A stretch of 64,000 nt of DNA from an uncultured Candidatus Rokubacteria bacterium (GTDB taxonomy: Bacteria > Methylomirabilota > Methylomirabilia > Rokubacteriales > DASRDR01): positions 921,912-985,911 of the forward strand of contig CAWDVE010000017.1 in the NCBI GenBank assembly GCA_963805625.1. Reading direction: 5' to 3'. A program made the translations under genes and the position numbers. The notes under the pieces were generated by a model. That model made no database searches and was not told the origin of the DNA. It saw only the letters and a program-made list of their open reading frames with translations. Shown here piece after piece: positions 2,586 through 61,970 of this stretch; within the stretch, counting starts at the first letter, position 1; the number at the start of each line of letters is the position of its first letter.

Positions 2586-3680
2586 GTGCCGCGGACGAGA
2601 CTAGACGTCCCGTCGGTCGAGCATCTGTCGATCGTTGACGAGGAGGGTCGCGTCGACGAGTCGCTCGAGCCCCCAATTCCTCACGAGGACCTCCGCCGCC
2701 TTTACCGTACTTTTCTCCTCGGCCGGCGCTTCGACGAGCGGATGCTGCGCCTCCAGCGCCAGGGACGCATCGGCACCTTCGGGCCCATTCGCGGCCACGA
2801 GGCCGCCGTGCTGGGGAGCGTCTACGCGCTCCGCGCGACGGACTGGATGGTGCCCTACTATCGCGAGTGGCCCGCGTACATGTGGCGCGGCTGGCCGCTC
2901 GACAACCTCATCCTCTACTACGCGGGGTACGCCGAGGGGATGCGCGTTCCCGACGGTGTGCGGGATCTGCCGCTCTGCATCCCGATCGCGAGCCAGATTC
3001 CGCACGCGGTCGGCCTCGCCTGCGCGAGCCGGTACAAGGGCGAGGACAGCGTGACGATGGTCTACTTCGGCGACGGCGCCTCGTCCCACGGCGACTGCCA
3101 GGAGGCGATGAACTTCGCCGGCGTCTTCCAGGCTCCGCTGGTCTTCTTCTGCCTGAACAACCAGTGGGCCATCTCGCTGCCACGGGCGAAGCAGACCCAC
3201 GCGCGGACGCTCGCGCAGAAGGCGATCGCGTACGGCTTTCCCGGGATCCAGGTGGACGGCAACGACCTGCTCGCCTGCTACGTGGCGACGCGCGAGGCCG
3301 TCGATCGCGCGCGGCGCGGCGAGGGGCCAACGCTGATCGAGGCCCTGACATACCGGCTGTCGCTCCACACCACGGCGGACGACCCGACGAAATATCGCGA
3401 CGAAGCCGAGGTCAAGGAGTGGGAGGCCCGGGAGCCCTTCCCCCGGTTCCGGCGGTACCTCGAGGGGAAGGGCATCCTCGCCGCCGCCGGGGAAGCGGCG
3501 CTCGAGGCCGAGATCGACACGGAAATCCGGAACGCGGTCGAGCGCGCCGAGGCTCGGATGCAGGCGAACCTCGTCGACGGCTTCGAGCACGTCTACGCGG
3601 AGCCGACGCAGGAGCTGCGGGCCCAGCGCGAGGAGCTCTTGCGCGAGCTCGCCGTGGCCGGCGAGGCGGCACACGGGTAA
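2586..3680 (+). CDS. pdhA: Pyruvate/2-oxoacid dehydrogenase E1 alpha
   Basis: LQRQGRIG, TPP motif GDGASS...NNQWAIS, HTTADDP; GTG after GAAAGGGGG. Confidence 0.92.
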   Translation: MPRTRLDVPSVEHLSIVDEEGRVDESLEPPIPHEDLRRLYRTFLLGRRFDERMLRLQRQGRIGTFGPIRGHEAAVLGSVYALRATDWMVPYYREWPAYMWRGWPLDNLILYYAGYAEGMRVPDGVRDLPLCIPIASQIPHAVGLACASRYKGEDSVTMVYFGDGASSHGDCQEAMNFAGVFQAPLVFFCLNNQWAISLPRAKQTHARTLAQKAIAYGFPGIQVDGNDLLACYVATREAVDRARRGEGPTLIEALTYRLSLHTTADDPTKYRDEAEVKEWEAREPFPRFRRYLEGKGILAAAGEAALEAEIDTEIRNAVERAEARMQANLVDGFEHVYAEPTQELRAQREELLRELAVAGEAAHG

Positions 3681-3719
3681 TGCACCGGACGGCACCCGAG
3701 GACCGACGAGGAGCCGGCG

Positions 3720-4709
3720 ATGACTGAGCCCCGGAAGCTGACGATGGTCCAGGCCATCAACCTCGCCCTCATGCAGGAGATGGAGCGGGACGACGACGTC
3801 CTGGTGCTCGGCGAGGACATCGGCGTCGACGGGGGCGTGTTCCGCGTGACGGACGGCCTCCTCGCGAAGTTCGGGGAGCAGCGCGTCATCGACACGCCGC
3901 TGGCCGAGGGCGCCATCGTGGGCATGGCCATCGGCATGGCGATCTACGGGCTGAAGCCCGTGCCGGAGATCCAGTTCTCCGGCTTCTCCTTCCAGGCCTT
4001 CCACCAGATCGAGAATCACGCGGCGCGATACCGGGCCCGAACGCGGGGGCGCTATCACATCCAAATGGTCGTGCGGATGCCATACGGCGGTGGCGTGCGC
4101 GCCCTCGAGCACCACTCCGAGAGCGAAGAGGCGTACTACGCGCACACGCCGGGCCTGAAGATCGTGATCCCGTCCAGCCCCCGGTCCGCGCGCGCCCTCC
4201 TGGTCAGTGCGATCCGCGATCCGGACACGGTGATCTTCTTCGAGCCGAAGGCCCTCTACCACGCCGTCAAGGAGGAGGTCCCGGTGGCCGAGGAGGCCTG
4301 GCCCATCGGGAAGGCGCGCGTCGCCCGGGAGGGCAAGGACCTGACGCTGATCGCCTACGGGGCCATGCTCCACCGCTGCCTCGAGGTCGCCGAGCGGGTC
4401 CACGCTGAGGACGGGGCCGAGGTCGAGGTGGTCGACCTCCTGTCGATCTCGCCCATGGACACGGAGACGATCGCCGCGTCCGCCCGCAAGACGGGGCGCG
4501 TGGTCGTCGCCCATGAGGCCCAGCGCAGCTTTGGCGTCGGCGCCGAGGTCGTGGCGCGGGTCGTGGAGACCGCCTTCCTCCAGCTCGAAGCGCCCGTGCG
4601 GCGCGTCACCGCGTTCGACATCGTCTACCCGGGCTTCGCGCGCGAGCGCGGCTGGCTGCCGGGGCCGGACCGCGTGCTGCGCGCCGTCCGGGAAACGCTC
4701 GCCTTCTAG
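3720..4709 (+). CDS. pdhB: Pyruvate/2-oxoacid dehydrogenase E1 beta
   Basis: GEDIGVDGGVFRVT, DTPLAE, EIQF, HSES motifs. Confidence 0.92.
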   Translation: MTEPRKLTMVQAINLALMQEMERDDDVLVLGEDIGVDGGVFRVTDGLLAKFGEQRVIDTPLAEGAIVGMAIGMAIYGLKPVPEIQFSGFSFQAFHQIENHAARYRARTRGRYHIQMVVRMPYGGGVRALEHHSESEEAYYAHTPGLKIVIPSSPRSARALLVSAIRDPDTVIFFEPKALYHAVKEEVPVAEEAWPIGKARVAREGKDLTLIAYGAMLHRCLEVAERVHAEDGAEVEVVDLLSISPMDTETIAASARKTGRVVVAHEAQRSFGVGAEVVARVVETAFLQLEAPVRRVTAFDIVYPGFARERGWLPGPDRVLRAVRETLAF

Positions 4710-4743
4710 CCGGCGCCAGGGTCGCGCCGCGCCTCCGCGTCCG

Positions 4744-7596: not shown

Positions 7597-8865
7597 ATGA
7601 GTCGCCCGGTCCTCCTCGCCGCGCTGGGCGTCCTGACGGTCTCGCTGGACACCGCCGTCAACATCGCTTTCCCGGCAATCTCCGCCGCGTTCCAGGTAGC
7701 GGCCACCTCGATCCAATGGATCGTCCTCACCTACATGGTCACCTTCGCCATCGCCCTCATTCCCGCCGGCTGGCTTGCCGACCGGATCGGACATGCACGC
7801 GTCTTCCAGGGAGGTCTCGCCCTCACTGGCGTGGCGCACGTCCTGTGCGGGCTCGCGCCGGCGTGGACGTGGCTGCTCGGGGCGCGCGTCGTGCAGGGGC
7901 TGGGGGCGGCGCTCGTGATGGCGAGCGCACCCGCCCTCGTCACCCTGTCGATGGAAGCGGACCGGCGCGGACGGGCCCTCGGCCGGCTGGGACTGGCGGC
8001 GAGTCTCGGTGCTGTCGTGGGACCCCTCGGAGGCGGGGTCCTCATCGAGGCGCTGGGCTGGCGTGTCGCGTACCTGGGGCGGCTCCCCCTCGTGGCGGTC
8101 GCGCTCGGGCTATGCTGGGCGCTCCCCGAGAGGACGGTGTCGCCGAGATCGACCCATCCCGACATTGGCCCCCCGCCGCCGGCCGTCCTGGGGGACGCCC
8201 CGCCCGTGGGGAGCGTCGCCAGGGGCCTCATCGACCCCCGGACCTTCGCGCTCGCGAACGCGGCGCATCTTCTTGCGTTCGTGGCGCTCTTCGCCGTCTG
8301 GCTCCTCGTACCCTACTACTTGATCGACCGGCGAGGCTTCTCGGCGGGGTTGGGGGGCGTCCTTTTCACGACCGGGCCGCTCGCGCAGGCGTGCGCAGCC
8401 CCGCTGGGGGGGCGGCTGGCCGATCGGGGCGCCGGCCGCTGGCTCGCACCGCTGGCCCTTGCCATCGAGGGCGTCGGGCTCTGGCTCACGGGACGTCTCG
8501 ACGACGTTGCGACCCCGGCGCGCATTTCCTTGGCCCTCGGGCTCGGCGGCTTCGGCTCCGGGCTCTTCCTCGTCGCCAACATGCACTACGTCATGGCCGC
8601 GCTGTCACCGTCGCGCCAGGGCATGGCGGGGAGCTTGGTCGCGCTCATGCGGACGGCGGGGGTTGTCGTGGGGGCGAACGTGACGACCGCCGTCTACGCT
8701 GCGCGCCTGGCTGCCCACGCCCATCTCGGGGAGGGGGGAGCCGCCTCATCGGCCTTCACCGACGCCTTCGGCGTGGCGGCGGCGGTCGCGGGGGCCGCGG
8801 CGCTCCTGAGCCTGGTGCCACCACGCGCGCGCGATGCGGCCGGCGGCAGCACCTCCACGCCTTGA
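7597..8865 (+). CDS. MFS transporter (DHA2-like drug/H+ antiporter)
   Basis: LDTAVNIAFPAI, GWLADRIG motif A, many TM segments. Confidence 0.85.
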   Translation: MSRPVLLAALGVLTVSLDTAVNIAFPAISAAFQVAATSIQWIVLTYMVTFAIALIPAGWLADRIGHARVFQGGLALTGVAHVLCGLAPAWTWLLGARVVQGLGAALVMASAPALVTLSMEADRRGRALGRLGLAASLGAVVGPLGGGVLIEALGWRVAYLGRLPLVAVALGLCWALPERTVSPRSTHPDIGPPPPAVLGDAPPVGSVARGLIDPRTFALANAAHLLAFVALFAVWLLVPYYLIDRRGFSAGLGGVLFTTGPLAQACAAPLGGRLADRGAGRWLAPLALAIEGVGLWLTGRLDDVATPARISLALGLGGFGSGLFLVANMHYVMAALSPSRQGMAGSLVALMRTAGVVVGANVTTAVYAARLAAHAHLGEGGAASSAFTDAFGVAAAVAGAAALLSLVPPRARDAAGGSTSTP

Positions 8866-8891
8866 CACCCCTCGCGCGACCGGTGTATACC
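8862..8891 (+). promoter_or_regulatory. Putative sigma70 promoter for the CMD-family gene
   Basis: TTGACA (8862) and TATACC (8886), 18-nt spacer. Confidence 0.5.
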
Positions 8892-8932
8892 CCGTCGCGA
8901 CGGCGTCGCCGTTCGGACGCGAGGGCCCTTCC

Positions 8933-9514
8933 GTGACGCGTATCCCCGAGCCGAGCCGAGATCAGCTGGACCCCGAGGTGCGGGAGCTCTACGACCGCAT
9001 CGCCCGGACGCGCGGCGCCACGCGCGGACCGTACGTCGTCCTGCTTCATCACCCAGCCCTGTGCGAGCGCGTCGCCGCGCTCGGCGAGCTGCTGCGCTTC
9101 GGGTCGGGGTTGCCGGGCGCGGACCGCGAGCTCGCGATCCTCACCGCCGGCCGCGAGGCCGAGGCGCCTTACGAGTGGGCAGCCCACGAGCCCATCGCGC
9201 TCCGGGAGGGCACCCGGACCGAGGCGATCGCGGTCGTGCGCGAGGACCGACCGACGCACGGGCTCCGGCCGCGCGAGGCCGTCATCGTCGACACCGTGCG
9301 CGCGATCTATCGAGCCCGCCACCTCACGGCCGATCAGTTCGCGCGCGCCGACACGGAGCTCGGACGCCAAGGTTTGATCGAGCTCGTGACGCTCGCGGGC
9401 TACTACGGGATGATCGCCGCGATCCTCAACGCCTACGAGGTGGATCTACCTCCCGGCACGACCCCCGCCTTTGGCCGCCGAGCGGGTGGCGAGGCCTCCC
9501 CGGAGAGACGCTAG
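8933..9514 (+). CDS. Carboxymuconolactone decarboxylase/AhpD-like protein
   Basis: GPY-VLLHHP, RELAIL..AR..YEWAAH, LIELVTLAGYY. Confidence 0.85.
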   Translation: MTRIPEPSRDQLDPEVRELYDRIARTRGATRGPYVVLLHHPALCERVAALGELLRFGSGLPGADRELAILTAGREAEAPYEWAAHEPIALREGTRTEAIAVVREDRPTHGLRPREAVIVDTVRAIYRARHLTADQFARADTELGRQGLIELVTLAGYYGMIAAILNAYEVDLPPGTTPAFGRRAGGEASPERR

Positions 9515-30956: not shown

Positions 30957-31027
30957 ACCTGCAAGCCCCCAACCGGTCGTCCCTCTCAAAGCCACGTTTT
31001 TCTCTTTTTCGAACGGCATTTTTACCC

Positions 31028-31056
31028 TTGACAGCCCCCTTGCCCCCCGCTAGTAT
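31028..31056 (+). promoter_or_regulatory. Sigma70 promoter of the dcw cluster (Pmra)
   Basis: TTGACA (31028), 17-nt spacer, TAGTAT (31051); T-rich upstream tract. Confidence 0.85.
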
Positions 31057-31064
31057 CCCGCTTC

Positions 31065-31179: not shown

Positions 31180-31620
31180 GTGTTTCGCGGCAGGTACGAG
31201 CACACGATCGACCCGAAGGGCCGCCTGAGCATTCCCTCGCGCTATCGCGAGGAGCTCGCGGCGCGCGGGATCACCACCCTGGTCCTCAGCGAAGGGGACC
31301 ATTGCGTCTGGGCGTTTCCCCTCGACGCGTGGGAGCAGCTGGAAGAGCGGCTCCGGCTGCACCCGCAGCTCTCCCCCGAGCGCCGGAGCGTCGTCCGCGT
31401 CATGGTGGCCAGCGCGAAGGAGTGTCCCGTCGACCGCGCCGGCCGGACGCTGGTCCCGCCCGAGCTGCGCGAGTTCGCGGGGCTCAAGAAAGACGTCATG
31501 ATCACCGGTGCGCTCGAGTGGTTCGAGATCTGGAGCCGCGAGCGCTGGGCCGATCATCGCCAGACGCTGCGCGTCGGCTTCGACGAGATGACTCGCAAAC
31601 TGTCGGAGCACGGGGCATGA
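31180..31620 (+). CDS. mraZ: Division/cell-wall cluster repressor MraZ
   Basis: MFRGRYEHTIDPKGRL and DRAGR repeats. Confidence 0.96.
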   Translation: MFRGRYEHTIDPKGRLSIPSRYREELAARGITTLVLSEGDHCVWAFPLDAWEQLEERLRLHPQLSPERRSVVRVMVASAKECPVDRAGRTLVPPELREFAGLKKDVMITGALEWFEIWSRERWADHRQTLRVGFDEMTRKLSEHGA

Positions 31621-31721
31621 GCACGCCGGCCGCCACGGGTCGAGGACCGGCCGCCACAGGTCGAAGACCGTCGGATCAACGCCGTCCGATCATTTCCGGC
31701 GCAACCAGGGTAGCCCAGTGA
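31617..31721 (+). other. 34-aa bridging mini-ORF containing a 21-bp tandem repeat
   Basis: ATGA overlap with the mraZ stop, GTGA overlap with the rsmH start; repeat CCGGCCGCCAC(G/A)GGTCGA(G/A)GA at 31626 and 31647. Confidence 0.45.
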
Positions 31722-33054: not shown

Positions 33055-33227
33055 TCATTTCATGACGCGCGCCGGCCAGCCCGCCGCCGCGGTCGGTCCC
33101 CGGGGGACGACCGGCTTTCGACCGGCCACGGTGACACGGCGGTGACCGCCGGCGCGCGACCGGACGGGCGGGGTCCACGGCCGGGTCGGGCCTTCCCGGC
33201 GGCCGCCCCCGCCCTCGTCCGGAGACC

Positions 33228-35207
33228 ATGACGGAGCCTGCGTCCCGATACCGAAGCCGTGCACTCGTCCTGACCGGTTGCCTCATCCTCCTGCTCGGGG
33301 GCATCGTCCTCCGGCTGGGCTACCTCCAGATCGTCCGTCACGACGAGCTTGCCCGCCTCGCCGAACGGCAGTACTCCAAGACCATCCCACTCCGGCCCGA
33401 GCGGGGTCCGATCCTCGACCGCAACGGATACGCGCTGGCCGTGAGTGCCCCGGTCGAATCCGTCTACGCCTTGCCCGGACGGATCGCCGACCGGACCGTC
33501 GTGGCTGCCGCGCTGGCCCCGCACCTTGGCGAGCGGCCGCGGGACATCGAGCAGCGCCTAGCCAGCGACCGCCCGTTCGTCTGGGTGAAGGTGAAGATTC
33601 CGCCGGCCGCGGCCGAGGCCATCCGGGCACGCCGGCTGCCGGGGATCGGTACCGTGCCCGAGGCGCTCCGGTTCTATCCGAACCGTGAGTTGGCGGCCCA
33701 GATTCTCGGATTCGTCGGGAGGGACGACCGGGGTCTCGAGGGCATGGAGCTGGCCCACGACAAGTCCCTGGCGGGCGAGGCGGGGCTGGCGCTCGTCGAG
33801 CGGGACGCCCTCGGGCGCGAGATGACCGGGCAGCCGACGATCCTCAAGACGCCGACGCCGGGGACCGGCCTTGTCCTGACCATCGACGCGACCGTGCAGT
33901 ACCTCGCCGAGCGCGAGCTGGAGGCGGCGTGGCGCACCACCGGCGCCAAGGCCGGGATGGTCCTCGTCATGGACCCCCGGACGGGCGAGATCCTGGCGAT
34001 GGCGATGCGCCCGACCTTCAACCCCAACGCGTACCAGACCGCCACGGCCGACCAGTGGCGGAACCGCGCCGTGACGGACCCCTTTGAGCCTGGATCGACG
34101 TTCAAGGCCATCCTCGCCGCCTCGGCTCTTGAGGACGGGGTCGTGAAGCCAGGAGACCGATTCTACGGGGAGCAGGGTGTCATCACGATCGCCAACCGGA
34201 CGATTCACGACTGGAAGAAGTACGGCTGGCTGACATTCCAGCAGGTCCTCCAGTACTCCTCGAATGTGGGCGCCATCAAGGTGGGCCTCCAGCTCGGCCG
34301 GGAGCGATACTACCGGCACGTCACGGAGTTCGGCTTCGGGAGCCTCACGGGAGTCGGCCTTCCCGGCGAGAGCCGCGGGCAGCTCCGCCCGCCCGACCGG
34401 TGGTCGGGGCTGTCCTTGGCGAGCATCTCGATCGGTCAGGAGGTGTCGGTGACGGGGGTGCAGATGCTCGCCGCGTTCGGCGCCCTCGCCAATGGTGGCC
34501 GGCTGATGCAGCCTCACATCGTCCGCGCGGTGCTCGATCGGAGCGGCCGGGAAGTCCGGCGGACGGAGCCCCAAGCCGTGCGCCAGGTCATCTCGCCCGA
34601 GACGGCCGCGACCCTCAACGACATCCTGACGTCCGTGGTGGCCGAGGGAACCGGGCACAAGGCTGTCGTCCAGGGCTACGCCGTCGCCGGCAAGACGGGG
34701 ACGGCCCAGAAGCCAGACCCGGTCACGCACGTCTACTCCCGTAAGCCCGGCGTGCTCTCGTTCATCGGGTTCGTTCCCTCGAACGCCCCGCGGCTGGTGA
34801 TCCTGGCCTTGCTCGACGAACCCAAGACCGTGGTCTGGGGATCCGAGGCGGCGGCCCCGATCTTCGCGGCGGTGGCGGGGCCGGTCCTGCGGCACCTTGA
34901 CGTGGCGCCGACCGAGGCCGTGCCCGCGGTCCAGATCGTGCGAGCAGCCGGTCGGGACGCCGAACGGGAGCCGCCGGCGGAACCAGCTGCTGGAATGTCG
35001 CCGGACGCGGAGGCGCTGATGCCGGATCTCACCGGGAAGAGCCTACGCCAGGCGCTCGCTCTCCTGGGTGCGCTCGACATTGACGTGGCGGTGGCGGGGC
35101 GGGGGCTCGTCGTGCGTCAGACGCCGGCACCCGGGACGCCGCTTGGCCCCGGGGCATCCTGCCGCCTGGAGCTGGCACCGCCAACGGCCATCCGGATGGA
35201 GTCGTGA
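33228..35207 (+). CDS. ftsI: Penicillin-binding protein 3 with C-terminal PASTA domain
   Basis: RGPILDRNG, EPGSTFK (SxxK), SSN, AGKTGTAQ; MPDLTG..G.VVRQTP PASTA. Confidence 0.93.
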   Translation: MTEPASRYRSRALVLTGCLILLLGGIVLRLGYLQIVRHDELARLAERQYSKTIPLRPERGPILDRNGYALAVSAPVESVYALPGRIADRTVVAAALAPHLGERPRDIEQRLASDRPFVWVKVKIPPAAAEAIRARRLPGIGTVPEALRFYPNRELAAQILGFVGRDDRGLEGMELAHDKSLAGEAGLALVERDALGREMTGQPTILKTPTPGTGLVLTIDATVQYLAERELEAAWRTTGAKAGMVLVMDPRTGEILAMAMRPTFNPNAYQTATADQWRNRAVTDPFEPGSTFKAILAASALEDGVVKPGDRFYGEQGVITIANRTIHDWKKYGWLTFQQVLQYSSNVGAIKVGLQLGRERYYRHVTEFGFGSLTGVGLPGESRGQLRPPDRWSGLSLASISIGQEVSVTGVQMLAAFGALANGGRLMQPHIVRAVLDRSGREVRRTEPQAVRQVISPETAATLNDILTSVVAEGTGHKAVVQGYAVAGKTGTAQKPDPVTHVYSRKPGVLSFIGFVPSNAPRLVILALLDEPKTVVWGSEAAAPIFAAVAGPVLRHLDVAPTEAVPAVQIVRAAGRDAEREPPAEPAAGMSPDAEALMPDLTGKSLRQALALLGALDIDVAVAGRGLVVRQTPAPGTPLGPGASCRLELAPPTAIRMES

Positions 35208-40630: not shown

Positions 40631-41728
40631 ATGCCGCGCAAGATGAGCCCCGACTACTGGCTGTTCCTGGTGGTGCTGGCCCTCCTCGGGCTCGGCGTGG
40701 TGATGGTCTACTCGGCCAGCGCGATCCTCGCCACCGACCGCTTCCGGGACGCCCACTTCTTCCTCAAGAAGCAGCTCTTCTGGGCCGTGCTGGGGCTCGG
40801 CGTCATGTGGGGCGTGATGGCCGTCGACTATCGCCGGTGGCGCCCCCTGGTGAGCCCGCTCCTGGCGCTCGCCTTCGTGCTCCTCGTCCTCGTGCTGGTG
40901 CCGCCGTTCGGCCAGTCCATCAACGGGACGCGCCGGTGGCTCCGGTGGGGGCATTTCTCTGTGCAGCCGACCGAGCTCGCCAAGCTGGTCCTGGTCGTCT
41001 ACCTGGCGGACTTCCTGGCCCGCCGGCAGGCCGTCATCGGGAGCTTGTGGCGCGGCGTCGTCCCGCCCCTGGTCGTGACGGGCGGTGTGGCCGGGCTGGT
41101 CCTCCTCCAGCCAGACCTCGGTTCCGCGGTGGCGATCGTGGGCGTGGTCCTCTGCATGATCTTCGTTGCCGGCGCCCGGCTCGCTCACCTGGGACTGATC
41201 GGCGCCCTGGCCCTTCCCGTCGTGGTCGTGGCCGTCTTCACGGCGAGCTACCGGCTCCGGCGGGTACTCACGTTCCTCGACCCCTGGGCCGACCCGCGGG
41301 GAGCGGGGTTCCAGATCATCCAGTCCTATCTCGCGCTCGGCGGCGGCGGGCTCCTTGGGCGCGGCCTCGGGGAGTCGAAGCAAAAGCTCTTCTACCTCCC
41401 CGAGCCCCACACCGACTTCATTTTCGCGATCCTCGGTGAGGAGCTCGGATTCGTCGGCGCGGTCGCGACGGTCGTCCTCTTCGGGCTCCTCCTTTGGCGC
41501 GGCATCCGGATCGGGCTCCGAGTCTCCGACCCGTTCGGCGCGCTCCTGGCGTTCGGGGTCTCCGCGCTCCTCGTGAATCAGGCGGTGGTCAACCTGGGCG
41601 TGGTCGTCGGGCTCTTTCCGACGAAGGGGCTGCCGCTTCCGTTCGTGTCGTCAGGCGGTTCCTCGCTCCTGGTCGCGATGGCCGCGGTCGGCCTGCTTCT
41701 GAACGTCTCGCAGCGGGCCGAGGTATGA
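40631..41728 (+). CDS. ftsW: SEDS peptidoglycan polymerase FtsW
   Basis: [40 protein letters not shown]. Confidence 0.96.
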
Positions 41729-41732
41729 GGCG

Positions 41733-43166
41733 ATGACAGGGACCCGAGCCTTCAAGCGGTACCAGCAGATCCACTTCGTGGGTATCGGTGGCGTGGGCAT
41801 GAGCGGGCTCGCCGAGGTGATCCTGACACTCGGCTACCGGGTGACGGGCTCGGATGCCCGCCGTAGCGAGGCGGTCGAGCGCCTCGAGCGGCTCGGCGCG
41901 AAGATCCACGTGGGCCATGCGGCGGGCCAGATCGAGGGCGCCCACGTGGTCGTCTACTCCTCGGCGGTGGCCCGCGACAACCCTGAGCTCCAGGCGGCCC
42001 GCCAGCGCGGGGTCCCGGTGATCCCGCGTGCGGAGATGCTCGCCGAGCTCATGCGGGTCAAGCACGGGATCGCCATTGCCGGAACGCACGGAAAGACGAC
42101 GACGACCTCCATGGTCGGCGCCGTCCTGGCCGAGGCGGGATTCGACCCGACGCTCGTCGTGGGGGGACGCGTCACGGCGCTCGGCTCGAACGCGCGGCTC
42201 GGCCAGGGTGAGTTCCTGGTGGCGGAGGCCGACGAGTCCGATGGCTCGTTCCTCCGGCTCACCCCGACGATCGCCGTCGTCACGACGATCGATGCCGAGC
42301 ACCTCGACTACTATCGTGACCTCGCGGCCATCCGGGAGGCGTTCCTGTCGTTCGTGAACAAGGTGCCGTTCTATGGCGTGGCGGTTCTATGCGCCGACCA
42401 GCCGGAGATCCAGGCGATTCTTCCGCGCGTGGAGAAGCGCGTTATCACCTACGGGTTGACCGCGCCCGCCGACCTCGTTGCCGCCTCGGTGCGGCTCAGC
42501 GAGCTGACCGCGCGCTTCGAGGTGCTCCACAAGGGAGACTCGCTCGGTGAGCTCCGCCTCCAGGTTCCGGGCGTCCACAACGTGGCCAACGCCCTGGCGG
42601 CGGCGGCCGTCGGGCTCGACCTCGAGGTCCCGTTCGCGGCCGTGCAGCGGGCGCTCGCCGCCTTCACAGGCGTCCAGCGGCGCTTCCAGGTCAAGGGCGA
42701 GGTGGGGGGGATCCTGCTGGTCGACGACTACGGGCACCACCCGGCGGAGATCCGGGCGACCCTGGCCGCGGCCCGCCAGGGCTTCGCGCGCCGGCGCGTC
42801 GTGGTGTTCCAGCCCCACCGCTACACCCGGACGTTCCACCTGTACGACGAGTTTCTGGCGGCCTTCGACGATGCCGATGTGCTGATCGTGACCGACATCT
42901 ATCCGGCGGGCGAGCCGCCGATCCCCGGGGTCCACGCCCGGAGCTTGGCCGAGGGGATCGGGGCGCGCACCGGCCGCGATGTCCGATACGTGGGTGACCG
43001 GACCGAGGTGGTGGAGGCTCTCCTCCGCGCCCTCCGGCCCGGCGACTTGGTCCTGACCCTCGGGGCCGGCGACGTGGGTGCGATCGCGGACCAGTTGCGC
43101 GAGCGCCTGGCCACGCGCGACGCCTCGCCCGTCCCGGGCGGAGAAGGAGACCGGCATGCTAGGTGA
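41733..43166 (+). CDS. murC: UDP-MurNAc:L-Ala ligase
   Basis: [39 protein letters not shown]. Confidence 0.97.
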
Positions 43167-44031
43167 GATCCACGGCGAGGTGCGCTTCAAGGAGCCACTC
43201 GCGTTCCACACGTCGCTCCGCTGTGGCGGGCCGGCGGACATCTTCATCATTCCGCAGGACGTCGACGACGTCCGGAAGGCGCTGATGTTCGCCGACAAGG
43301 AGAAGCTGCCCGTCGCCATCCTGGGGAGCGGACACAACACGCTGGTGCGGGACCGCGGCTATCGAGGCATCGTGCTGAAGATCGAGGGCTGCCTCGGCCG
43401 CATGGAGTTCCACGGCGAAGAGGTCACCATCGGCTGCGGCGCGGGTTTGTCGACGATGATCCGCGAAGCCGCTGCAATCGGGCTGGGTGGGATCGAGTGC
43501 CTGGTGGGCATCCCCGCGACGGTCGGGGGGGCGCTCGCCATGAACGCCGGCACCCACGACGGCGCCATCTGGGACTTCGTGTCAGCGGTGTACTTCCTTC
43601 ACCCGGACGGGACGATTGGTGAGCTCAAGCCCGCGCCGGGGTTCACCTACCGCGCCTTCGCGTTACCGACCGGGGCGATCCTTCTGGGAGTCCGGATCCA
43701 ACTCCATCGGAAGCCGCAGAAGGAGATCATGGCCGAGATCCGGGCGCGTCTCAAGCAGAAGAAGTCGACACAGCCCCTCGCCCTGGCCGCCGTCGGCTGC
43801 GTCTGGAAAAATCCCGACTACGACCACGCCGCACGGTTGCTCGAGAAGGCAGGCCTTCGAGGCAAGCGCGTGGGCGGCGCCGAGATCTCCGCGAAGCACG
43901 CCAACTTCATCCTCAATCGCGGCGGAGCCAGCGCGCAAGACGTCCTCGGCCTCCTGGAGCTCGCGTTCGATCGCGTGCACAGCCAGACGGGCATTCGGCT
44001 GACGTCGGAGCTCAGGATCCTGGGCGAGTGA
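43156..44031 (+). CDS. murB: UDP-N-acetylenolpyruvoylglucosamine reductase (divergent)
   Basis: [38 protein letters not shown]; GAAGGAG SD. Confidence 0.9.
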
Positions 44032-44068
44032 TCTTTATGGCGCGCCTCCGTGGAGCGGTCGGGATCCC

Positions 44069-45103
44069 GTGAGCCCACAGGGCGCCACAGGCCGCCACCG
44101 GCCGAAGGCCGTCGGAGCAGCTCCGTCGGAAGGGGGCCGTCCGATCAGTTCCTCCAACTCCCGCGCCCTGTCGGGGCCGCGGACCCGCACGCTGCCCGCG
44201 GACCTGGCGTCCCGGTCGCGCCTCATCGGCAACCAGCGTCACCGTGCCCGGCTCGGGGGCCGGGCCCTCCGCGTGCTGCTGCGGGTGCTCGTTCTCGGCC
44301 TGACCCTGACGGGGCTGGCTGTGGCGGGCTTCGTGGCCTGGGATTGGGTGCGGCGGACGCCACTTCTGGCCACGCGCGCCGTCGAGATCGCCGGCGCCCG
44401 CCGGCTCGACGAGGGGACGGTGCGCGCGGCGGCGGCCATCGAGCCCGGGACGAACCTCTTCGTCGTCGATGTCGCAGCCACCGAGGCCCGGGTCTCCGGA
44501 CTTCCGGGGGTCCGCCGCGCTCACGTCGTGCGCCACCTGCCGGGCCGGGTGACCGTGCTCCTGGAGGAGCGCGAGCCCTACGCGCTCGTCAACGCCGGTG
44601 GACTCCACTGGATCGATGCGGAGGGCTACCTGGTCACCGCCGACGCTCGACCCGGGGCCACCGGCCTACCGATCCTGACGGGCATCGGCGCGCCCGCTTC
44701 CGGGGTGGCCACGCCGTCCGAGGGCCTCCGCGCGGGGCTGGCGCTGCTGCACGTGTTGCAGCGTACGTCCGGACGTCTCGCCGCACGTGTCTCCGAGGTC
44801 GATCTCGCCCGTGCCCACGGCCCGGTGCTCTACCTGGTCGACGGGATCGAGGTCCGGCTCGGGACCGACGCCTGGAGCGATCGGCTGGCGCGACTCGACG
44901 GGGTCCTCGGCGAGCTCGACGCCCGTGGGGAGCGCGTGGCCTCCATAGATCTCCGGTTCCGGGATCAGGTCGTGCTCACGCCTCACAGCCCGGCGCCTCC
45001 GGTCGGCCCGGCCCGGACGCCGGCCGCCGCGAGCCGGCGCCGGGCGGTCGGGGATCCCGCCACTCTCGCGATGCCGGCCGCGGCTGGCGTGGAGCGACGC
45101 TGA
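44069..45103 (+). CDS. ftsQ: Cell division protein FtsQ/DivIB (start codon uncertain)
   Basis: TM, POTRA domain, LPGRV..EEREP, IDLRFRDQVV. Confidence 0.85.
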   Translation: MSPQGATGRHRPKAVGAAPSEGGRPISSSNSRALSGPRTRTLPADLASRSRLIGNQRHRARLGGRALRVLLRVLVLGLTLTGLAVAGFVAWDWVRRTPLLATRAVEIAGARRLDEGTVRAAAAIEPGTNLFVVDVAATEARVSGLPGVRRAHVVRHLPGRVTVLLEEREPYALVNAGGLHWIDAEGYLVTADARPGATGLPILTGIGAPASGVATPSEGLRAGLALLHVLQRTSGRLAARVSEVDLARAHGPVLYLVDGIEVRLGTDAWSDRLARLDGVLGELDARGERVASIDLRFRDQVVLTPHSPAPPVGPARTPAAASRRRAVGDPATLAMPAAAGVERR

Positions 45104-45105
45104 CG

Positions 45106-52420: not shown

Positions 52421-53563
52421 ATGAAGAAGTACCACCTGCTCGCGCCGGGTCCGACCCCGATCCCCCCCGTGGTCCTCCAGGCGATTGCCCAGCCGATCCT
52501 CCACCACCGGACGCCCGAGTTCGAGGCGCTCTTCGGCCGGGTGCGGTCCGGTCTCGCCGAGCTGATCGGGACTCGGAGCGAGGTCATCATCCTGGCGGCC
52601 TCGGGTACCGGTGCGCTCGAGGCTGCCGTCGTCAACCTCTGCTCGCCCGGGGACGAGGTGCTCGTCGTACGGTGCGGCAAGTTCGGCGAGCGCTGGGCTG
52701 ACATCGCCCGGGCCTTCGGCCTCACCGTCCGCACCATTGATGCGCCATACGGCGAGACGGTGCCGCCGGAGCGAGTGGCGGCGGCCCTGGCCGCGCATCC
52801 CAAGGCGCGGGCCCTCTTCGTGACCCAGAGCGAGACGTCGACCGGCGTTCTCGAGGACGTCGAGGCGTACGCCGCCCTCACCCTGGGGACCGACACCCTG
52901 TGCGTGGTGGACACGGTCTCGTCGCTCGGGGTCGTGCCGTGCCCGATGGATCTCTGGGGGATCGACGTCGTGGTCGCGGGCTCGCAGAAGGGGCTCATGT
53001 GCCCCCCGGGGCTCGCGTTCGTGGCGCTGAACGACCGTGCGTGGCGAGCGGCCGAGCACGCCCGGTGCCCACGCTTCTACTGGGACCTTCCCACCGAGCG
53101 GCGCTGGCAAGCGAAGCACCAGGGCCAGTTCACGCCTGCCGTGTCGCTCCTCGCGGGACTCGATGTCGCGCTCGGGCTCCTCCGCGCCGAGGGATTCGCG
53201 GAGGTCTACCGTCGCCACGACCGGCTCGCGCGTGCGGCGCGGGCGGGGGCCGAGGCGCTCGGGCTCGCGCTCTTCGCCCGGGCGACGCCGAGCCCGGCTG
53301 TCACGGCCATCATCCCGCCGGCGGGGATCGACGGCGAGGCGGTCGTGCGGGCGTACGGCTCGGACGACAACATCACCATCGCGGGCGGGCAGGGTGAGAT
53401 GAAGGGGAAGCTCTTCCGGCTTGCCCACCTGGGCTGGGTCGACGAATCCGACCTGATCGTCGGCCTCGCGTCGCTCGAGCGCGTCCTCGTGCGGCTGGGG
53501 GTGCCGGTGGAGCTGGGCGCGGGGGTGGCCGCCGCGCAGCGGATCTTCGCCAAGGAGAGCTGA
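52421..53563 (+). CDS. Class V PLP aminotransferase (serine-pyruvate/alanine-glyoxylate family)
   Basis: PGPTP, HHR, SGTGALE, SETSTG, DTVSS, GSQKGL..PPG; upstream TATAGT and AAGGAG. Confidence 0.9.
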   Translation: MKKYHLLAPGPTPIPPVVLQAIAQPILHHRTPEFEALFGRVRSGLAELIGTRSEVIILAASGTGALEAAVVNLCSPGDEVLVVRCGKFGERWADIARAFGLTVRTIDAPYGETVPPERVAAALAAHPKARALFVTQSETSTGVLEDVEAYAALTLGTDTLCVVDTVSSLGVVPCPMDLWGIDVVVAGSQKGLMCPPGLAFVALNDRAWRAAEHARCPRFYWDLPTERRWQAKHQGQFTPAVSLLAGLDVALGLLRAEGFAEVYRRHDRLARAARAGAEALGLALFARATPSPAVTAIIPPAGIDGEAVVRAYGSDDNITIAGGQGEMKGKLFRLAHLGWVDESDLIVGLASLERVLVRLGVPVELGAGVAAAQRIFAKES

Positions 53564-53570
53564 CTCGGCG

Positions 53571-55166
53571 GTGAGCGCCCCGTTCGCCAAGCGAGTGCTC
53601 GTCACCGACTCCCTCCAGGAGATCGGAGTGGACACGCTTCGCGGCGAGAGCCTGCTGGTCGACGTGGTTCCGACCCTGCCGCCCGAGGAGCTCGCCCGGC
53701 GGATCGGCCCCTACCACGGCCTCGTGGTCCGGAGTGCGACCTGCGTCACGGCGGCGGTGATTGACGCCGCGCCCGCCCTCGAGGTGATCGGGCGCGCCGG
53801 GGTCGGCCTCGACAACGTCGACGTGGAAGCGGCCACGCGGCGCGGCATCGTCTGCATGAACACCCCCGGCGGCAACACGATCGCCGCGGCCGAGCACACG
53901 ATGGCGCTCCTCCTCGCTGTCGCGCGGAAGCTGCCCCAGGCCCACGCCCACCTCCGGGGCGGCAAGTGGGAGCGCGATCGCTTCCTCGGGGCGGAGGTCT
54001 ACGGCAAGACGCTCGGCATCGTCGGGCTCGGGCGCATCGGCACGGAGGTCGCGCGACGCGCGCAAGGTTTCCAGATGACGGTCGTCGCCTACGACCCGTA
54101 CCTCGGCACCGAGGTCGCGGAAAGGCTCGGGGTCGAGCTGGTCGACCTGGACGCGCTCCTCCGGCGGTCGGACTTCATCTCGGTCCACATTCCCTTGACG
54201 AAGGAGACGCGAGGCCTGATCGGCGCCGCGGAGCTCGGGCGGACGAAGCCCGGCGTGCGCATCGTCAACTGCGCCAGGGGCGGCATCGTCGACGAGGCCT
54301 CGCTGGCGGCAGCGATTCAGACTGGCCACGTCGCGGGCGCCGGGCTCGACGTCTTCGAGCAGGAGCCCCCCTGGGGCTCGCCGCTCCTGGACCTGGAGCC
54401 GGTCGTCGTGACGCCGCACCTCGGCGCCTCCACGGAGGAGGCGCAGACGCAGGTTGCGGTGGCCATCGCGCAGCAGGTGGCCGACCTCCTGCTCCGTGGC
54501 GTGGTCCGTCACGCCGTCAACGCGCCCAGCGTGGACCCCGAGCTTCTGCGGGAGCTGGCGCCCTATCTCGGGCTCGCCGTGAAGCTCGGGTCGTTCCTCG
54601 GCCAGCTCGCCGAGGGTCGGATGGCCGAGGCGCGGCTCACCTACGCGGGCGAGATCGCCGGGCACGCGACCCAGCCGCTCACCGTTACCTTCCTGCGGGG
54701 GCTCCTCGGCGTGATCCTCGAGGAGAACGTGACCGACGTGAACGCGCCGTACCTCGCGCGGCAGCGGGGCCTGCGCGTTGTCGAGTCGAAAACGCCCGTG
54801 AGCGAGGACTACGCCAGCCTGCTGACCGCCGAGCTCGTGACCGATCGGGGTCAGTGGCAGGTCGCCGGGACGCTCTTCCACCGCCGCGAGCCACGGATCG
54901 TCCAGGTGGATAGGTTCGACCTCGAGGCGCACGCGGTGGGCTGGATGGTCGTGCTCTCGAACGACGACGTGCCGGGCGTCATCGGACGGCTCGGCACCCT
55001 CCTTGGCGCGCACGGGATCAACATCGCAGGCATGCAGCTCGGGCGGCAGCAGCCCGGCGGTCGCGCCGTGTCCGTCCTGAGCCTGGACACGCCGATCTCG
55101 GACCTCGTGCTCGCCGAGCTCCGGGCGCTGCCGTCGATCCGCTCGGCCCGCCTCGTGCGGCTGTAG
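53571..55166 (+). CDS. serA: D-3-phosphoglycerate dehydrogenase with ASB and ACT domains
   Basis: RAGVGLDNVD, GLGRIG, NCARGG, TPHLGAST, DVPGVIG..INIAGM. Confidence 0.95.
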   Translation: MSAPFAKRVLVTDSLQEIGVDTLRGESLLVDVVPTLPPEELARRIGPYHGLVVRSATCVTAAVIDAAPALEVIGRAGVGLDNVDVEAATRRGIVCMNTPGGNTIAAAEHTMALLLAVARKLPQAHAHLRGGKWERDRFLGAEVYGKTLGIVGLGRIGTEVARRAQGFQMTVVAYDPYLGTEVAERLGVELVDLDALLRRSDFISVHIPLTKETRGLIGAAELGRTKPGVRIVNCARGGIVDEASLAAAIQTGHVAGAGLDVFEQEPPWGSPLLDLEPVVVTPHLGASTEEAQTQVAVAIAQQVADLLLRGVVRHAVNAPSVDPELLRELAPYLGLAVKLGSFLGQLAEGRMAEARLTYAGEIAGHATQPLTVTFLRGLLGVILEENVTDVNAPYLARQRGLRVVESKTPVSEDYASLLTAELVTDRGQWQVAGTLFHRREPRIVQVDRFDLEAHAVGWMVVLSNDDVPGVIGRLGTLLGAHGINIAGMQLGRQQPGGRAVSVLSLDTPISDLVLAELRALPSIRSARLVRL

Positions 55167-58164: not shown

Positions 58165-60099
58165 TCAGATTGTAGCCCGCGGGACCCAAACACGCATCGC
58201 GCCCGGGCTTCGATTCGCCCAGGCGAAGTACGGGATTGCCGAGAGCTCCACCCGTTGCCGTGTCGGCGGCGCCTCGGAGCGGAACGGGCGGTAGAGTCGA
58301 TCGCCCCACGACGAGGTGTCGACGCGGAACCCCGGTGCCCGGACGACCACGACGCCTTCGAGGAGCCCGGGGTCCCAGCGGGACGCCGGCACTCCGGTCG
58401 GGTCGATCTCGAGCTCGGCGATCGGCGCGTCGCCCTGATCAGCTTGCTCGAGGCAATAGACGAGGGGGCCGCGCTCGATCGCGACGGATCCGCGGGTCGA
58501 CTCGATCGCCGGGTGTGGCTCGATCAGCCTTACGTCCATCGGGAGGTCCAGCTCCACGGCGTCACCCGGGCGCCAGCTTCGCTCGAGACGGAGGTAACCC
58601 CGCGCGTCCGGTGCGGCCTCCATCGCTCCGCCGTTCACCTGCACGGTGGCGCGCGCGCACCATTCCGGGACCCGCAAGGCGAGCGGCCACGAGCTTCCGT
58701 CTCCCTCCTCGATCGTCAACCGGACCGACCCCTCCCACGGGTAGCAGGTCTCCATCCGCAGGGCCACGGGGCTCCCCGATGGCAGCGAGGTCGCGATCCG
58801 GGCCGGCGCGTACTGGTGCATCTGGAGCCCCGCGCGATCGCGCGTCGCGACGTAGTGCCCGAGCGACGCCAGGAGCCGCATGACGTTCGGTGGACAGCAG
58901 GCGACCAGGTGCCATTCCTTTCGCCGGCAGCCGCCGCGCCCGAGATGCTCCGCTCGCCCGTTGCTGGCCAGGGGGTTCACGTAGAAGTAGCGCTCGCCGT
59001 CGAGCGACACCCCGGCGAGCACGGCGTTGTGGAGCGTCCGGTCGATCAGGTCGGCGAAGCGCGCCTGGCCGGTGGCCAGTAGCATCCGCCAGCTCCAGAG
59101 GATGCTGGCGATGGCCGCGCACGTCTCGCAGTAGGCGAGATCGTTCGGCAGCTCGTACGGCTGACCGAACGCCTCTCCCAGATGGCGTGAGCCGACGCCC
59201 CCGGTCACGTACAGCTTGTGACTGGTGAGGTCCGCCCATTGACGGTCGAGGGCGGCCAGGAGCACCGCCTCCCTGGTCTCCAGGTACACGTCCGCGATCC
59301 CCGCGGTCAGGTACAGCGCGCGGACGGCATGACCCTCGACCTCGGCCGCCTCCCGCACGGGCACCCGGTCCTGATAGTAGGCCGCGCTGTTGTAACGTCC
59401 GGGGCCGAGCCAGGCGCGACCACGCTGGTCGAGGAAGAACCCTGCCAGATCGAGGTAGCGCCGCTCGCGGGTTTCCCGGTAGAGTTCGGTGAGCCCCATC
59501 TCGATCTCCGGGTGGCCGGGCGTCCCGGGCTCTCTGCCGGGCCCGAAGCGCGCGTCGAGATAGTCCGCGAAGCGCCGAGCGATCCGGAGCAGGCGGTCAT
59601 CGCCGGTGGCCCGATGGTGCGCGACCGCGGCCTGGAACAGGTGACCCGCACAGTAGAGCTCGTGCCCCTGGGCGAAGTCGGTCCAGCGCCGGCCCGGCTC
59701 CGCCACCTGATAGTGGGAGTTCAGGTAGCCGTCCTCACCCTGGGCGGCGCCGACGATCTCGATCACGGCCGTCATGTGTGATAGGAGCCAGTCGCTCGGA
59801 ATCCGGGCGTGCTCGTAGGCGGCAGCCTCGATCCACTTGTACACGTCCGAGTCCATGAAGACCGGGCCCTGGTAGCGACCGGTGGATCTGCCGGCGGCGA
59901 TGCGGAGATTCTCGAAGTTCCCCGCGGCCTCGAGCATCCGGTAGCCGTGGGGCAGAGCGGCGTCACGGTTGGTCGCCTGCCGCCGGGCCCACAGACCGCC
60001 CTCGATCGTCACGGCGCCTCCGGCGAGCGTCTGCCACATGGCTGCCGGACTGTGAGTGGTGTCGGTCGGGCTGGCGCCGCGGGTCGGGATCCCTGTCAT
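58165..60099 (-). CDS. GH127 beta-L-arabinofuranosidase-like glycoside hydrolase
   Basis: DSDVYKWIE, HELYCAGH, GHAVR, GEAF, YCETCA, ACCPPN (Zn/Cys catalytic motifs). Confidence 0.92.
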   Translation of the reverse strand: MTGIPTRGASPTDTTHSPAAMWQTLAGGAVTIEGGLWARRQATNRDAALPHGYRMLEAAGNFENLRIAAGRSTGRYQGPVFMDSDVYKWIEAAAYEHARIPSDWLLSHMTAVIEIVGAAQGEDGYLNSHYQVAEPGRRWTDFAQGHELYCAGHLFQAAVAHHRATGDDRLLRIARRFADYLDARFGPGREPGTPGHPEIEMGLTELYRETRERRYLDLAGFFLDQRGRAWLGPGRYNSAAYYQDRVPVREAAEVEGHAVRALYLTAGIADVYLETREAVLLAALDRQWADLTSHKLYVTGGVGSRHLGEAFGQPYELPNDLAYCETCAAIASILWSWRMLLATGQARFADLIDRTLHNAVLAGVSLDGERYFYVNPLASNGRAEHLGRGGCRRKEWHLVACCPPNVMRLLASLGHYVATRDRAGLQMHQYAPARIATSLPSGSPVALRMETCYPWEGSVRLTIEEGDGSSWPLALRVPEWCARATVQVNGGAMEAAPDARGYLRLERSWRPGDAVELDLPMDVRLIEPHPAIESTRGSVAIERGPLVYCLEQADQGDAPIAELEIDPTGVPASRWDPGLLEGVVVVRAPGFRVDTSSWGDRLYRPFRSEAPPTRQRVELSAIPYFAWANRSPGAMRVWVPRATI

Positions 60100-60148
60100 C
60101 TGGTCCTCCAGCTTGAGCGGGTTTGGCGGGTTCGGAAGAGGGCCGATC

Positions 60149-61021
60149 TCAGCCGGTGAAGCGCGCTTCGGGCAAGCCCCGCACGCCTGGATCGAGAGCC
60201 AGGAGGCCTCCGGCGCACGGCTGAGCGGCCAGCGCGTCCGACGAGAGCCCGATCGTTGCCGACGTCACGTACAGCACCGCGAGGTCCGGTCCACCGAAGG
60301 CCGGACAGGTGGGGCGCTGGACCGGCAAGCGCACGACGCGCTCCGTGCGGCCGGCGGGGTCGTGGCGGGTCAGCTGCCACCCGTCCCAGTGCGCGAGCCA
60401 CACGAATCCCTCGGCGTCGACGGTGGCGCCGTCCGGCGCGCCCTCGTCACCCGAGAGCTGCAGGAACACGCGGCGGTTCGCGATCTCACCGCGATCGGGG
60501 TCCGAGTCCCAGGCCCAGACGGTTCGGCGGACGGTGTCGGCGTGGTACATGGTCCGCCCGTCGGGGCTCCAGCAGAGCGAGTTCGAGCAGATGAGTCCGT
60601 CGATCATTCGGCGGCACGAGCCGTCGGGGTCGAGGCGGTAGAGGGAGCCCCCGGGAGCGGACTCTGGATCGTGCATGCTGCCGGCCCAGAACCGGCCGCG
60701 CCGGTCGGGCTTCCCGTCGTTGAAGCGGTTCTCTGGCCGGTCCAGTTCGGGCCTGGCGACGGGCTGGATCGCACCCGTGTCGAGGTCGAGGAAGTGGAAG
60801 CCGGAGCGCAAGGCCACCACCAGACCGCCGGCCGCGCGCCGGACGAGGGAGCCCACGGTCTCGGGCGTCGGCCATCGCGTGTCGTGGCCGGTGGCGGGAT
60901 CGAACCGGTGCACGCTACAGCCCTTGATGTCGACCCAGTAGAGGAGGCGGTCCTCCGGGTCCCAGAGTGGCCCCTCGCCGAGGAGGGCCCGCGCCGGCAG
61001 GACGCAGCGCACGCCGGTCAC
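60149..61021 (-). CDS. SMP-30/gluconolactonase family sugar lactonase
   Basis: LGEGPLW, NRFNDGK, SNSL, PDGATVD, PTCPAFGG. Confidence 0.92.
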   Translation of the reverse strand: MTGVRCVLPARALLGEGPLWDPEDRLLYWVDIKGCSVHRFDPATGHDTRWPTPETVGSLVRRAAGGLVVALRSGFHFLDLDTGAIQPVARPELDRPENRFNDGKPDRRGRFWAGSMHDPESAPGGSLYRLDPDGSCRRMIDGLICSNSLCWSPDGRTMYHADTVRRTVWAWDSDPDRGEIANRRVFLQLSGDEGAPDGATVDAEGFVWLAHWDGWQLTRHDPAGRTERVVRLPVQRPTCPAFGGPDLAVLYVTSATIGLSSDALAAQPCAGGLLALDPGVRGLPEARFTG

Positions 61022-61076
61022 GGTCCGAGGACCGTGGGGAGGCGGGGCTTCCCGGCCGAGCGTCTCTCGTGCCGCA

Positions 61077-61970
61077 TCACGTGGTCTCCGGGGTCAACGT
61101 GAGCGAGGCGCGCACGGACTCGCCGGGAGCGAGGGTCCGCATCCCCGTGTCCGCCCGGCCGGCGGCGGCGAGATTGAAGGCGTCGGTGATGTGGCTGACC
61201 GGCTCGGCGCAGAAGAACGACGCGCCGGGCGGCGTGTAGACCACCAGCGTCCCGAGCGGGCCTCGCGTGCTGAGCCGGAGCTGAACGCGGCGCTCGGGCC
61301 ACGCGACGACGGCCTGGCCGTCCCAGCCGACGAACGCGTTGTCGAGCGGTACCCGATCCACGAGAAGCCCCCGCCCTGGATCGCGGTCCGGCGGGGGCGC
61401 CACGCAGACGACGGGCAACACCTCGGCGTCGGTCTGCCAGAGCCCGGTGACGTGCGCGGTGAGGGTCGTCGCCGCGGTCCTCGGGAAGTAGGGGTGCCAG
61501 CCCAGCCCCGCGGGCATGGCCGCGTTGCTTTCGTTCGCGAGCGTCAGCTCGAGCTCGAGGCTCGCCGGCGTCACCGCGATCCGCTGCACGACCCGATAGG
61601 CCCACGGCCACGCGCCCGGCACGTGGAGATACTCGAGGACAGCCCCCGCCGGGTGGGCGCTCACGACGGTCCATGAGGTCTGGAAGCCGTGCCCGTGGAT
61701 CGGGTGGCGATCCTGCGGACGGTTGGGTGGCAGGCTGATCGTGCGCTGGCCGAAGGCGAAGCGTCCCGCGCGGATCCGGTTCGACCATGGGACCAGCGGG
61801 AAGCATGCCATCGCCCAGGGATCGCGCCTCGCGAGCGCCAGGTCGGGCGCGGGGCGGAGTAGCTCCACGTCCGGTCCTGTCTTCTCGGACCAGAAGCGCG
61901 CGATCGCACCTCCGACCAGGGGCGAGAGCACGACGCCGAGCGGGCCACTCCGCAGGGTGATCGGGTCCAT
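61077..61970 (-). CDS. Aldose 1-epimerase (mutarotase) family protein
   Basis: FPLVPWSNRI, HPIHG, GWHPYF, FFCAEP. Confidence 0.88.
   Translation of the reverse strand: MDPITLRSGPLGVVLSPLVGGAIARFWSEKTGPDVELLRPAPDLALARRDPWAMACFPLVPWSNRIRAGRFAFGQRTISLPPNRPQDRHPIHGHGFQTSWTVVSAHPAGAVLEYLHVPGAWPWAYRVVQRIAVTPASLELELTLANESNAAMPAGLGWHPYFPRTAATTLTAHVTGLWQTDAEVLPVVCVAPPPDRDPGRGLLVDRVPLDNAFVGWDGQAVVAWPERRVQLRLSTRGPLGTLVVYTPPGASFFCAEPVSHITDAFNLAAAGRADTGMRTLAPGESVRASLTLTPETT

Follow-up and report, generated by a model that had tools for sequence, protein, structure and literature searches.

Termination-reinitiation between neighbouring genes is described as efficient at overlaps of four nucleotides (-4) and as falling steeply with distance (PMC10666635, PMC12548453). 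In mycobacteria, small open reading frames (ORFs) coupled through RTGA (the stop context ATGA or GTGA) end on the next start more often than by chance, with the linkage conserved but not the peptide, and have been proposed to deliver ribosomes (PMC4633059). MIRUs (short for mycobacterial interspersed repetitive units) are elements of 40-100 bp found in some 50 copies per genome, with terminal short direct repeats and an ORF of their own; their ends overlap the adjacent genes, they have inserted at start codons with -4 coupling, and both filled and empty sites are reported (PMC12548453, PMC3184786). That they take part in coupling has long been proposed, on the strength of a single genus, and a review regards ribosome delivery by short ORFs as possibly widespread (PMC12548453). 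Here we analyse a stretch of 64,000 nucleotides (the window; G000:C17:921912-985911) from the genome of an uncultured Candidatus Rokubacteria bacterium (G000; 7.27 Mb assembly, 70% GC). The original prediction, made from the letters of the window, had proposed that gaps within its operons are filled by mini-ORFs, which we call bridges, that start on the stop codon of one gene and end on the start codon of the next. Such bridges are more frequent across the genome than expected by chance.

The joints of these bridges are the RTGA joints known from termination-reinitiation at -4, -1 and -8, here with at least two joints in series and a frame that is not a gene between them. The mycobacterial small ORFs start at leaderless 5' ends, whereas the bridges start on the upstream gene's stop codon. 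The literature searched, which took in few subscription journals and no supplements, yielded no description of stop-to-start bridges as a genome-wide class, nor of the repeat described below. The accessible text of a survey of 530 genomes gives no overall phase bias in co-directional spacers, and no split by stop context was seen there (PMC2784483); a 2026 preprint on the gain and loss of overlaps, as far as its accessible text goes, treats overlaps as two states (10.64898/2026.09.10.750558).

To measure the excess, we called genes in G000 with a purpose-written caller whose start model is blind to everything 3' of the start codon, which gave 6186 genes, 4695 co-directional pairs and 594 direct -4 overlaps. 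We then scored the phase of each upstream stop against the downstream frame, a measure that uses no start call and equals 1 for a single bridge, in gaps of 4-60 nt between genes that both scored at least 12. Phases 0/1/2 numbered 32/164/107 after RTGA, compared with 141/204/152 after CTGA and 165/160/139 after TAA or TAG (p 2e-9 and 8e-16), and stood at 32/157/104 once repeat-bearing junctions were removed. The downstream start was an NTGA in 59% of phase-1 gaps after RTGA and in 25-31% of those after TAA or TAG. When stops were shuffled 2000 times among 2129 junctions of like length, 70.5 +- 6.7 strict bridges were expected (maximum 94) and 123 observed; the 107 of these 123 that carry no repeat compare with 62 by permutation. 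The prediction that bridges are commoner than in shuffled controls is thus borne out.

A further statistic from this genome, independent of start calls, is that restarted frames tend not to extend into the gene that follows. A frame restarted at the upstream stop overran the downstream gene in the wrong frame by more than 60 nt at 25 of 189 RTGA junctions and at 350 of 693 others (p 5e-22), and the difference persisted within phase 0 (8/32 against 226/313). Stops inside the spacer did not increase among phase-1 junctions (7/207 for RTGA, 10/222 and 20/290 in the comparison groups), and stops exactly on an RTGA start did (101/207, against 65/222 and 79/290). A smaller sample of relatives (1.6 Mb from G003, G004 and G009, 896 pairs) gave phases of 15/43/18 after RTGA, 41/47/41 after CTGA and 29/46/26 after TAA or TAG, with p 0.015 for RTGA against CTGA, and run-ins beyond 60 nt at 9 of 58 RTGA junctions against 93 of 171 (p 1e-7). 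Two 800-kb samples of the present genome reached p 0.04 and 0.045 for phase and p 0.086 and 0.0008 for run-in. With the pipeline retrained on 800 kb each, phases did not differ significantly in pSymB (RTGA 5/9/8 against 26/30/27, p 0.56), a sample too small to show absence, nor visibly in Escherichia coli (4/2/4 against 41/31/42), where RTGA junctions were likewise too few to show it. In these same small samples run-ins numbered 6/14 against 33/56 in pSymB and 1/6 against 19/72 in E. coli, and frames landed on the start at 5 of 14 against 6 of 56 junctions in pSymB.

Comparison of 451 orthologous junction rows between genomes indicates the direction of change. Where one genome had a direct RTGA overlap (142 comparisons), the other was direct or in frame in 109, gapped with RTGA kept in 15, gapped with another stop in 8, close in 7 and far in 3. 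The 15 gapped cases with RTGA kept comprised 11 in phase 1, 2 in phase 0 and 2 in phase 2, and all four outside phase 1 carried the repeat. The C-terminus of the upstream protein was unchanged in 15 of 15, from which it follows that the added nucleotides come in on the downstream side of the former overlap. Where the same junction ended in RTGA in one genome and in another stop in the other, phase 1 was found in 11/14 and 4/14, respectively.

Of the 59 relatives that gave a MurC match, 40 were used to compare the dcw region, which holds several of the junctions concerned. At ftsL-ftsI all 12 genus rows form a chain of two to four frames that reaches the ftsI ATG, the first frame starting with CTG or TTG; at the family level two of four rows have one bridge and two end in TAG. 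Across the order (19 rows) ftsL ends in RTGA in 13, in a direct TTGA in 1 and in TAG in 5, and the 13 RTGA rows are divided among direct overlaps (5), one bridge (5), two bridges (1), three bridges (1) and a -8 overlap (1). At mraZ-rsmH eight of 12 genus rows are direct or in frame, three have one bridge and one is broken. The murB-ftsQ junction is chained by zero to two bridges in 15 of 15 genus rows, with the qualification that ftsQ starts are uncertain and chains that permit CTG connect easily. Both genes of the epimerase-lactonase pair were found in five of nine relative loci, four of which have one bridge with unrelated peptides and the fifth a direct overlap. At these four junctions the link is therefore kept in relatives, as predicted, while peptide, length and number of bridges vary. 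The ftsL-ftsI rows provide a natural series of zero to three bridges at one junction which, together with the filled and empty alleles of the repeat, could be carried over to reporters.

The peptides themselves appear to be unconserved, in agreement with the prediction. Besides the unrelated peptides at epimerase-lactonase, changes in the two long ftsL-ftsI frames are spread over the three codon positions (9/6/8 and 9/9/14 in eight spacers of equal length), and the per-codon coding score of bridges (-0.24) is spacer-like, compared with +0.09 for coding tails. We rejected a functional small protein or a regulatory leader peptide on these three grounds. The richness of the bridges in Arg, Pro and Gly, pointed out in the original prediction, is equally that of control frames, and the openness of spacers is uninformative as a test: nearly every spacer frame is open, as the prediction had cautioned for DNA of high GC content. 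No tandem-duplication signature was detected around both RTGA sites of 85 non-repeat bridges (2.06 matching bases of 6, against 1.91 +- 0.11), and folding of six spacers revealed no structure in common. The RNA runs each held at most 11% of the sequence words. One RNA-library contig spans 32833-33297, across the ftsL-ftsI spacer, and informs neither on strand nor on translation. As regards co-transcription of the repeat with its flanking genes, the RNA-library contigs came from relatives, and among those listed none crosses mraZ-rsmH.

Part of the bridges, including that of mraZ-rsmH, come from a repeat family that the original prediction had not recognised. Measured from RTGA to RTGA, the basic unit spans 56 bp; it has a frame of 19 codons and RTGAGC at both ends, and accounts for 19 of 37 matches in GTDB. 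The position that precedes its first TGA, left free in the search pattern, was A or G in 36 of 37. With a profile, 53 merged copies were recovered from G000, against none from a reversed-genome control. Some copies carry internal module duplications, and 27 of the 53 begin on a called upstream stop. Nineteen form a bridge, 11 an in-frame fusion and 5 end in a TAG within 10 nt of the start; of the remaining 18, 10 lack an NTGA in the 45 nt upstream, 4 lack a called gene downstream and 4 belong to neither class. The window holds two copies, in the mraZ-rsmH bridge and at the N-terminus of ftsQ, and several bridges share sequence. Among relatives, mraZ-rsmH occurs as an empty site (L007, L009), as a 10-codon bridge (L001/L003) and as an in-frame repeat fusion (L004), and further filled and empty site pairs of the repeat were found. 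Judging by these alleles, the bridge in the window is a repeat copy that entered a junction where the ATGA overlap used to be direct. In other lineages the same junctions are bridged by inserts of another sequence.

In architecture the repeat is MIRU-like: a 56-bp unit in 53 copies, with its own ORF, RTGAGC ends, stop/start overlaps and filled and empty sites. This likeness is to MIRUs as PMC12548453 and PMC3184786 describe them. It differs in belonging to another phylum, in the internal module duplications of its unit, and in the variety of its outcomes (bridge, in-frame fusion or TAG stop). An exact 23-mer of the repeat was found in GTDB in 36 Rokubacteria/Methylomirabilota records and one Actinomycetota metagenome-assembled genome (MAG), and in no mycobacterium; a 17-mer core was present in 13 of 14 other genomes of the genus, one of six others of the family and none of 40 further genomes of the order that were searched. 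The repeat is a second, apparently independent, family. One genome of another genus (G019) has 144 exact matches to the core, and five sister genera have none; this patchy distribution possibly reflects a recent burst or transfer. A contig titled Actinomycetota (L030) has the repeat in a junction that almost matches that of L051, from a Rokubacteria record, for which mis-binning or transfer is a possible explanation.

Repetitive extragenic palindromes (REPs) and bacterial interspersed mosaic elements (BIMEs) are characterised by a GTAG near one end and by association with REP-associated tyrosine (RAYT, Y1) transposases. The 56-bp repeat is like them in being short and intergenic, in forming a small GC hairpin and in having a GTAG close to one of its ends, and differs in being strictly sense-oriented, tied to start codons and weakly folding. 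We rejected a REP/RAYT system for it: it has no stable palindrome (the repeat bridge at 31617-31721 has no strong fold, z +1.14), and the genome's one Y1 match, a weak one, has a different repeat on its flanks. No mobilising enzyme and no linked transposase were found for it in G000. An Rfam search of 30900-33400 returned two matches, both far below the gathering score, and the ftsL-ftsI spacer, when aligned with the repeat, gave no convincing match.

Taken together, the phase data, the run-in data and the comparisons with relatives suggest that frames restarted after RTGA in short gaps tend to end on or near the next start, and that reinitiating ribosomes are relayed by a second termination-reinitiation; we consider this reading rather probable. 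Ribosomes would reinitiate at the RTGA stop of the upstream gene. A directly coupled RTGA overlap would then gain an insert, either the 56-bp repeat or another, or a small indel, on its downstream side. The variants that survive would be those that carry the restarted ribosome in frame into the next gene, set it on that gene's start by one bridge, or pass it over two or three bridges; those that lead it across the next gene in another frame would be purged. The reason for a relay would lie in the steep drop of reinitiation with distance (PMC10666635). Bridge peptides would be by-products, and the downstream gene might later come to rely on a Shine-Dalgarno site of its own while the bridge decays, as may have happened at ftsW-murC and pdhA-pdhB. 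If so, operon spacers in such genomes would carry hidden frame constraints, short overlaps that seem lost in comparative studies might remain coupled, and translation of many tiny ORFs would yield no useful peptide.

A bolder version, about which we are more doubtful than convinced, would have RTGA reinitiation obligatory enough in the lineage of this genome to impose a genome-wide frame rule on spacers, and a selfish repeat that targets start codons exploiting it through a frame-proof 3' end. At 31708-31721 the 3' end of the repeat has a TAG, the start GTG and a TGA each in a different frame, so that a copy of any length modulo 3 would yield a TGA overlap at the start, an in-frame fusion or a TAG four bases before the start. 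Of the 12 copies in phase 0, 8 had a TAG-frame stop, compared with 11 of the 60 remaining copies (p 0.0016), with ends assigned heuristically and some phase-0 rows being tandem pairs. We regard this enrichment as a lead.

Several observations count against a relay. Chance would produce about 57% of strict bridges, which makes 'window-wide', as the relay had been called, an overstatement; and since chance alone yields some 70 of the 123, any single bridge is weak evidence. Repeat-free gaps of 61-150 nt show no phase effect (70/63/62), and this null result counts against the relay because the longest gaps have the greatest need of one; the predicted coupling across spacers accordingly holds for gaps of 4-60 nt and fades beyond 60 nt outside the repeat. 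At twelve of the 32 RTGA junctions in phase 0 the restarted frame still enters the downstream gene by more than 20 nt, junctions gapped after RTGA in both genomes were in phase 1 in both in just 5 of 16 cases, and in G003, G004 and G009 the RTGA phases did not differ significantly from those after TAA or TAG (p 0.14). Shine-Dalgarno motifs are not rarer at bridged starts (57% of 91, compared with 198 non-bridged starts, p 0.13), and downstream genes therefore need not depend on a relay. The relatives compared are not independent of one another, and the gene set, which comes from our own caller, misses some genes (80% coding).

The retained Shine-Dalgarno sites would also fit a simpler explanation, in which RTGA restarts occur and selection merely stops the junk frame before a next gene that initiates by itself, the TGA of the next start being the handiest stop. 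It is in keeping with this that our strongest statistic is the scarcity of long out-of-frame runs, that RTGA phase 0 lies below the baseline of convergent genes (18% against 29%, p 0.01) and that 13 of 32 phase-0 cases stop within 20 nt before the start. Yet the phase-1 stops gather on the RTGA start and not inside the spacer, and chains of two or three RTGA joints have been rebuilt in different lineages, and we think it unlikely that avoidance of damage accounts for the bridges. Nor do we give much credence to a neutral scar, in which a frameshift towards the upstream gene's 3' end, or towards the downstream gene's 5' end, leaves the old coding tail open and nothing is relayed. Simulated frameshifts in 541 directly overlapping pairs do produce an excess of phase 1 over phase 0 (2638:834 for RTGA, 1602:391 for CTGA), which weighs against the relay as well; one alignment has a shortened tail, and this genome has a mild phase-1 excess after CTGA (p 0.008). 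That excess is not seen in the relatives, however, the upstream C-terminus is unchanged in every polarised RTGA case, and the codon score of bridges is not that of tails. The phase-2 excess predicted from nonsense truncations is absent, and under neutrality nothing would make downstream-side indels prefer phase 1 to phase 0.

That the signal is an artefact of high GC content, of our gene caller or of indel errors in assembly seems very improbable, even though over half of the strict bridges arise by chance and a few relatives (L011) have apparent frame breaks. Phase uses stop positions alone, the other stops serve as controls of the same composition and give no effect, and the permutation preserves composition. 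The signal recurs in three other assemblies and in two retrained 800-kb samples, and assembly errors would blur conservation of frame, not create it.

Within the window, all nine intervals of the original prediction are open frames at the stated positions (Table 1). An automated list of gapped TGA-to-NTGA junctions contains 11, where a hand tally had given about 14; the count of 8 bridged junctions stands, including TTG and CTG starts and the ftsL-ftsI triple, and a single bridge with an ATG or GTG start is present at four of the 11 (mraZ-rsmH, ftsW-murC, murB-ftsQ and epimerase-lactonase). Gene names are supported by NCBIfam for pdhA, mraZ, rsmH, ftsW, murC, murB and serA, and by matches below the cut-off for pdhB, the penicillin-binding protein and the MFS protein. 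An NCBIfam search at 1e-10 gave no match for ftsL, ftsQ, CMD, the epimerase or the lactonase, whose names are those of the original prediction.

Table 1. Mini-frames and repeat copies at gene junctions, in positions of the window.
Feature	Position	Strand	Description
mraZ-rsmH bridge	31617..31721	+	34 codons, ATGA to GTGA; expanded 101-bp copy of the MIRU-like repeat
ftsL-ftsI frame 1	33051..33065	+	TTG start, 4 codons; CTG in most relatives
ftsL-ftsI frame 2	33062..33145	+	ATG start, 27 codons
ftsL-ftsI frame 3	33142..33231	+	GTG start, 29 codons; ends on the ftsI ATG
ftsW-murC bridge	41725..41736	+	3 codons; gap of just 4 nt
murB-ftsQ bridge	44028..44072	+	14 codons, GTGA to GTGA
Second repeat copy	44069..44152	+	In-frame N-terminus of ftsQ
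Epimerase-lactonase bridge	61018..61080	-	20 codons, GTGA to GTGA; best non-repeat case
pdhA-pdhB frame	3680..3727	+	TAATG start; terminates in a -8 overlap (ATGACTGA), not on a -4 overlap; weak case
MFS-CMD frame	8862..8936	+	TTG start; the TTG sits in a conserved TTGACA box
Aminotransferase-serA CTG frame	53560..53574	+	Relatives disagree
Lactonase-hydrolase CTG frame	60096..60152	-	Few relatives, mixed

The other junctions fared less well. The pdhA-pdhB frame is a poor case for a bridge, the 39-nt gap being kept without any restart codon in three of 11 genus relatives. The chain at MFS-CMD is not kept among relatives. There, a TTGACA overlaps the MFS stop codon and is followed 16 nt later by TGTAT (8862-8891) in every one of the 11 relatives that have the two genes, and the spacer is better read as a likely candidate for an internal promoter built on the stop codon; a strict promoter scan did not call it. 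The predicted CTG-start bridges are inconsistent across relatives: at aminotransferase-serA, eight genus relatives comprise two with a CTG bridge, one with two RTGA bridges, two in frame and three without, and at lactonase-hydrolase two of three relatives with adjacent genes are bridged (TTG and CTG) and one is not. The ftsW-murC junction has one bridge in 11 of 15 genus rows (7 CTG, 2 ATG, 2 GTG) and mostly a -8 overlap across the order. The proposal that bridges replace deleted genes found no sign in its favour here and was rejected for ftsW-murC: ftsW abuts murC across the order (window 40631-43166), and a family search placed murG outside the dcw cluster on the same contig (G000:C17:141223-142317).

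A few further features were noted in passing. Downstream of the murB-ftsQ junction, ftsQ ends in CTGA (window 45100-45142), and in 13 of 15 genus rows this CTG shares the reading frame of ftsA; relatives in the order have direct RTGA overlaps at the same place; CTG reinitiation at ftsQ-ftsA is possible. Other repeat-like inserts of 150-380 nt, with stop-free bridges across them, occur at mraY-murD and ftsL-ftsI in further lineages of the order (L140, L151, L152, L156 and L018). A second repeat family (core AAGTCAAAGTCTGACCCC), present in both orientations with about 15 + 11 copies in gaps at intergenic sites genome-wide, flanks a truncated Y1 transposase gene (G000:C4:136622-136789, minus strand), and by this arrangement the two likely form a REP/RAYT-type pair. 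Lastly, a Sigma-70-like promoter match lies upstream of mraZ (window 31028-31056).

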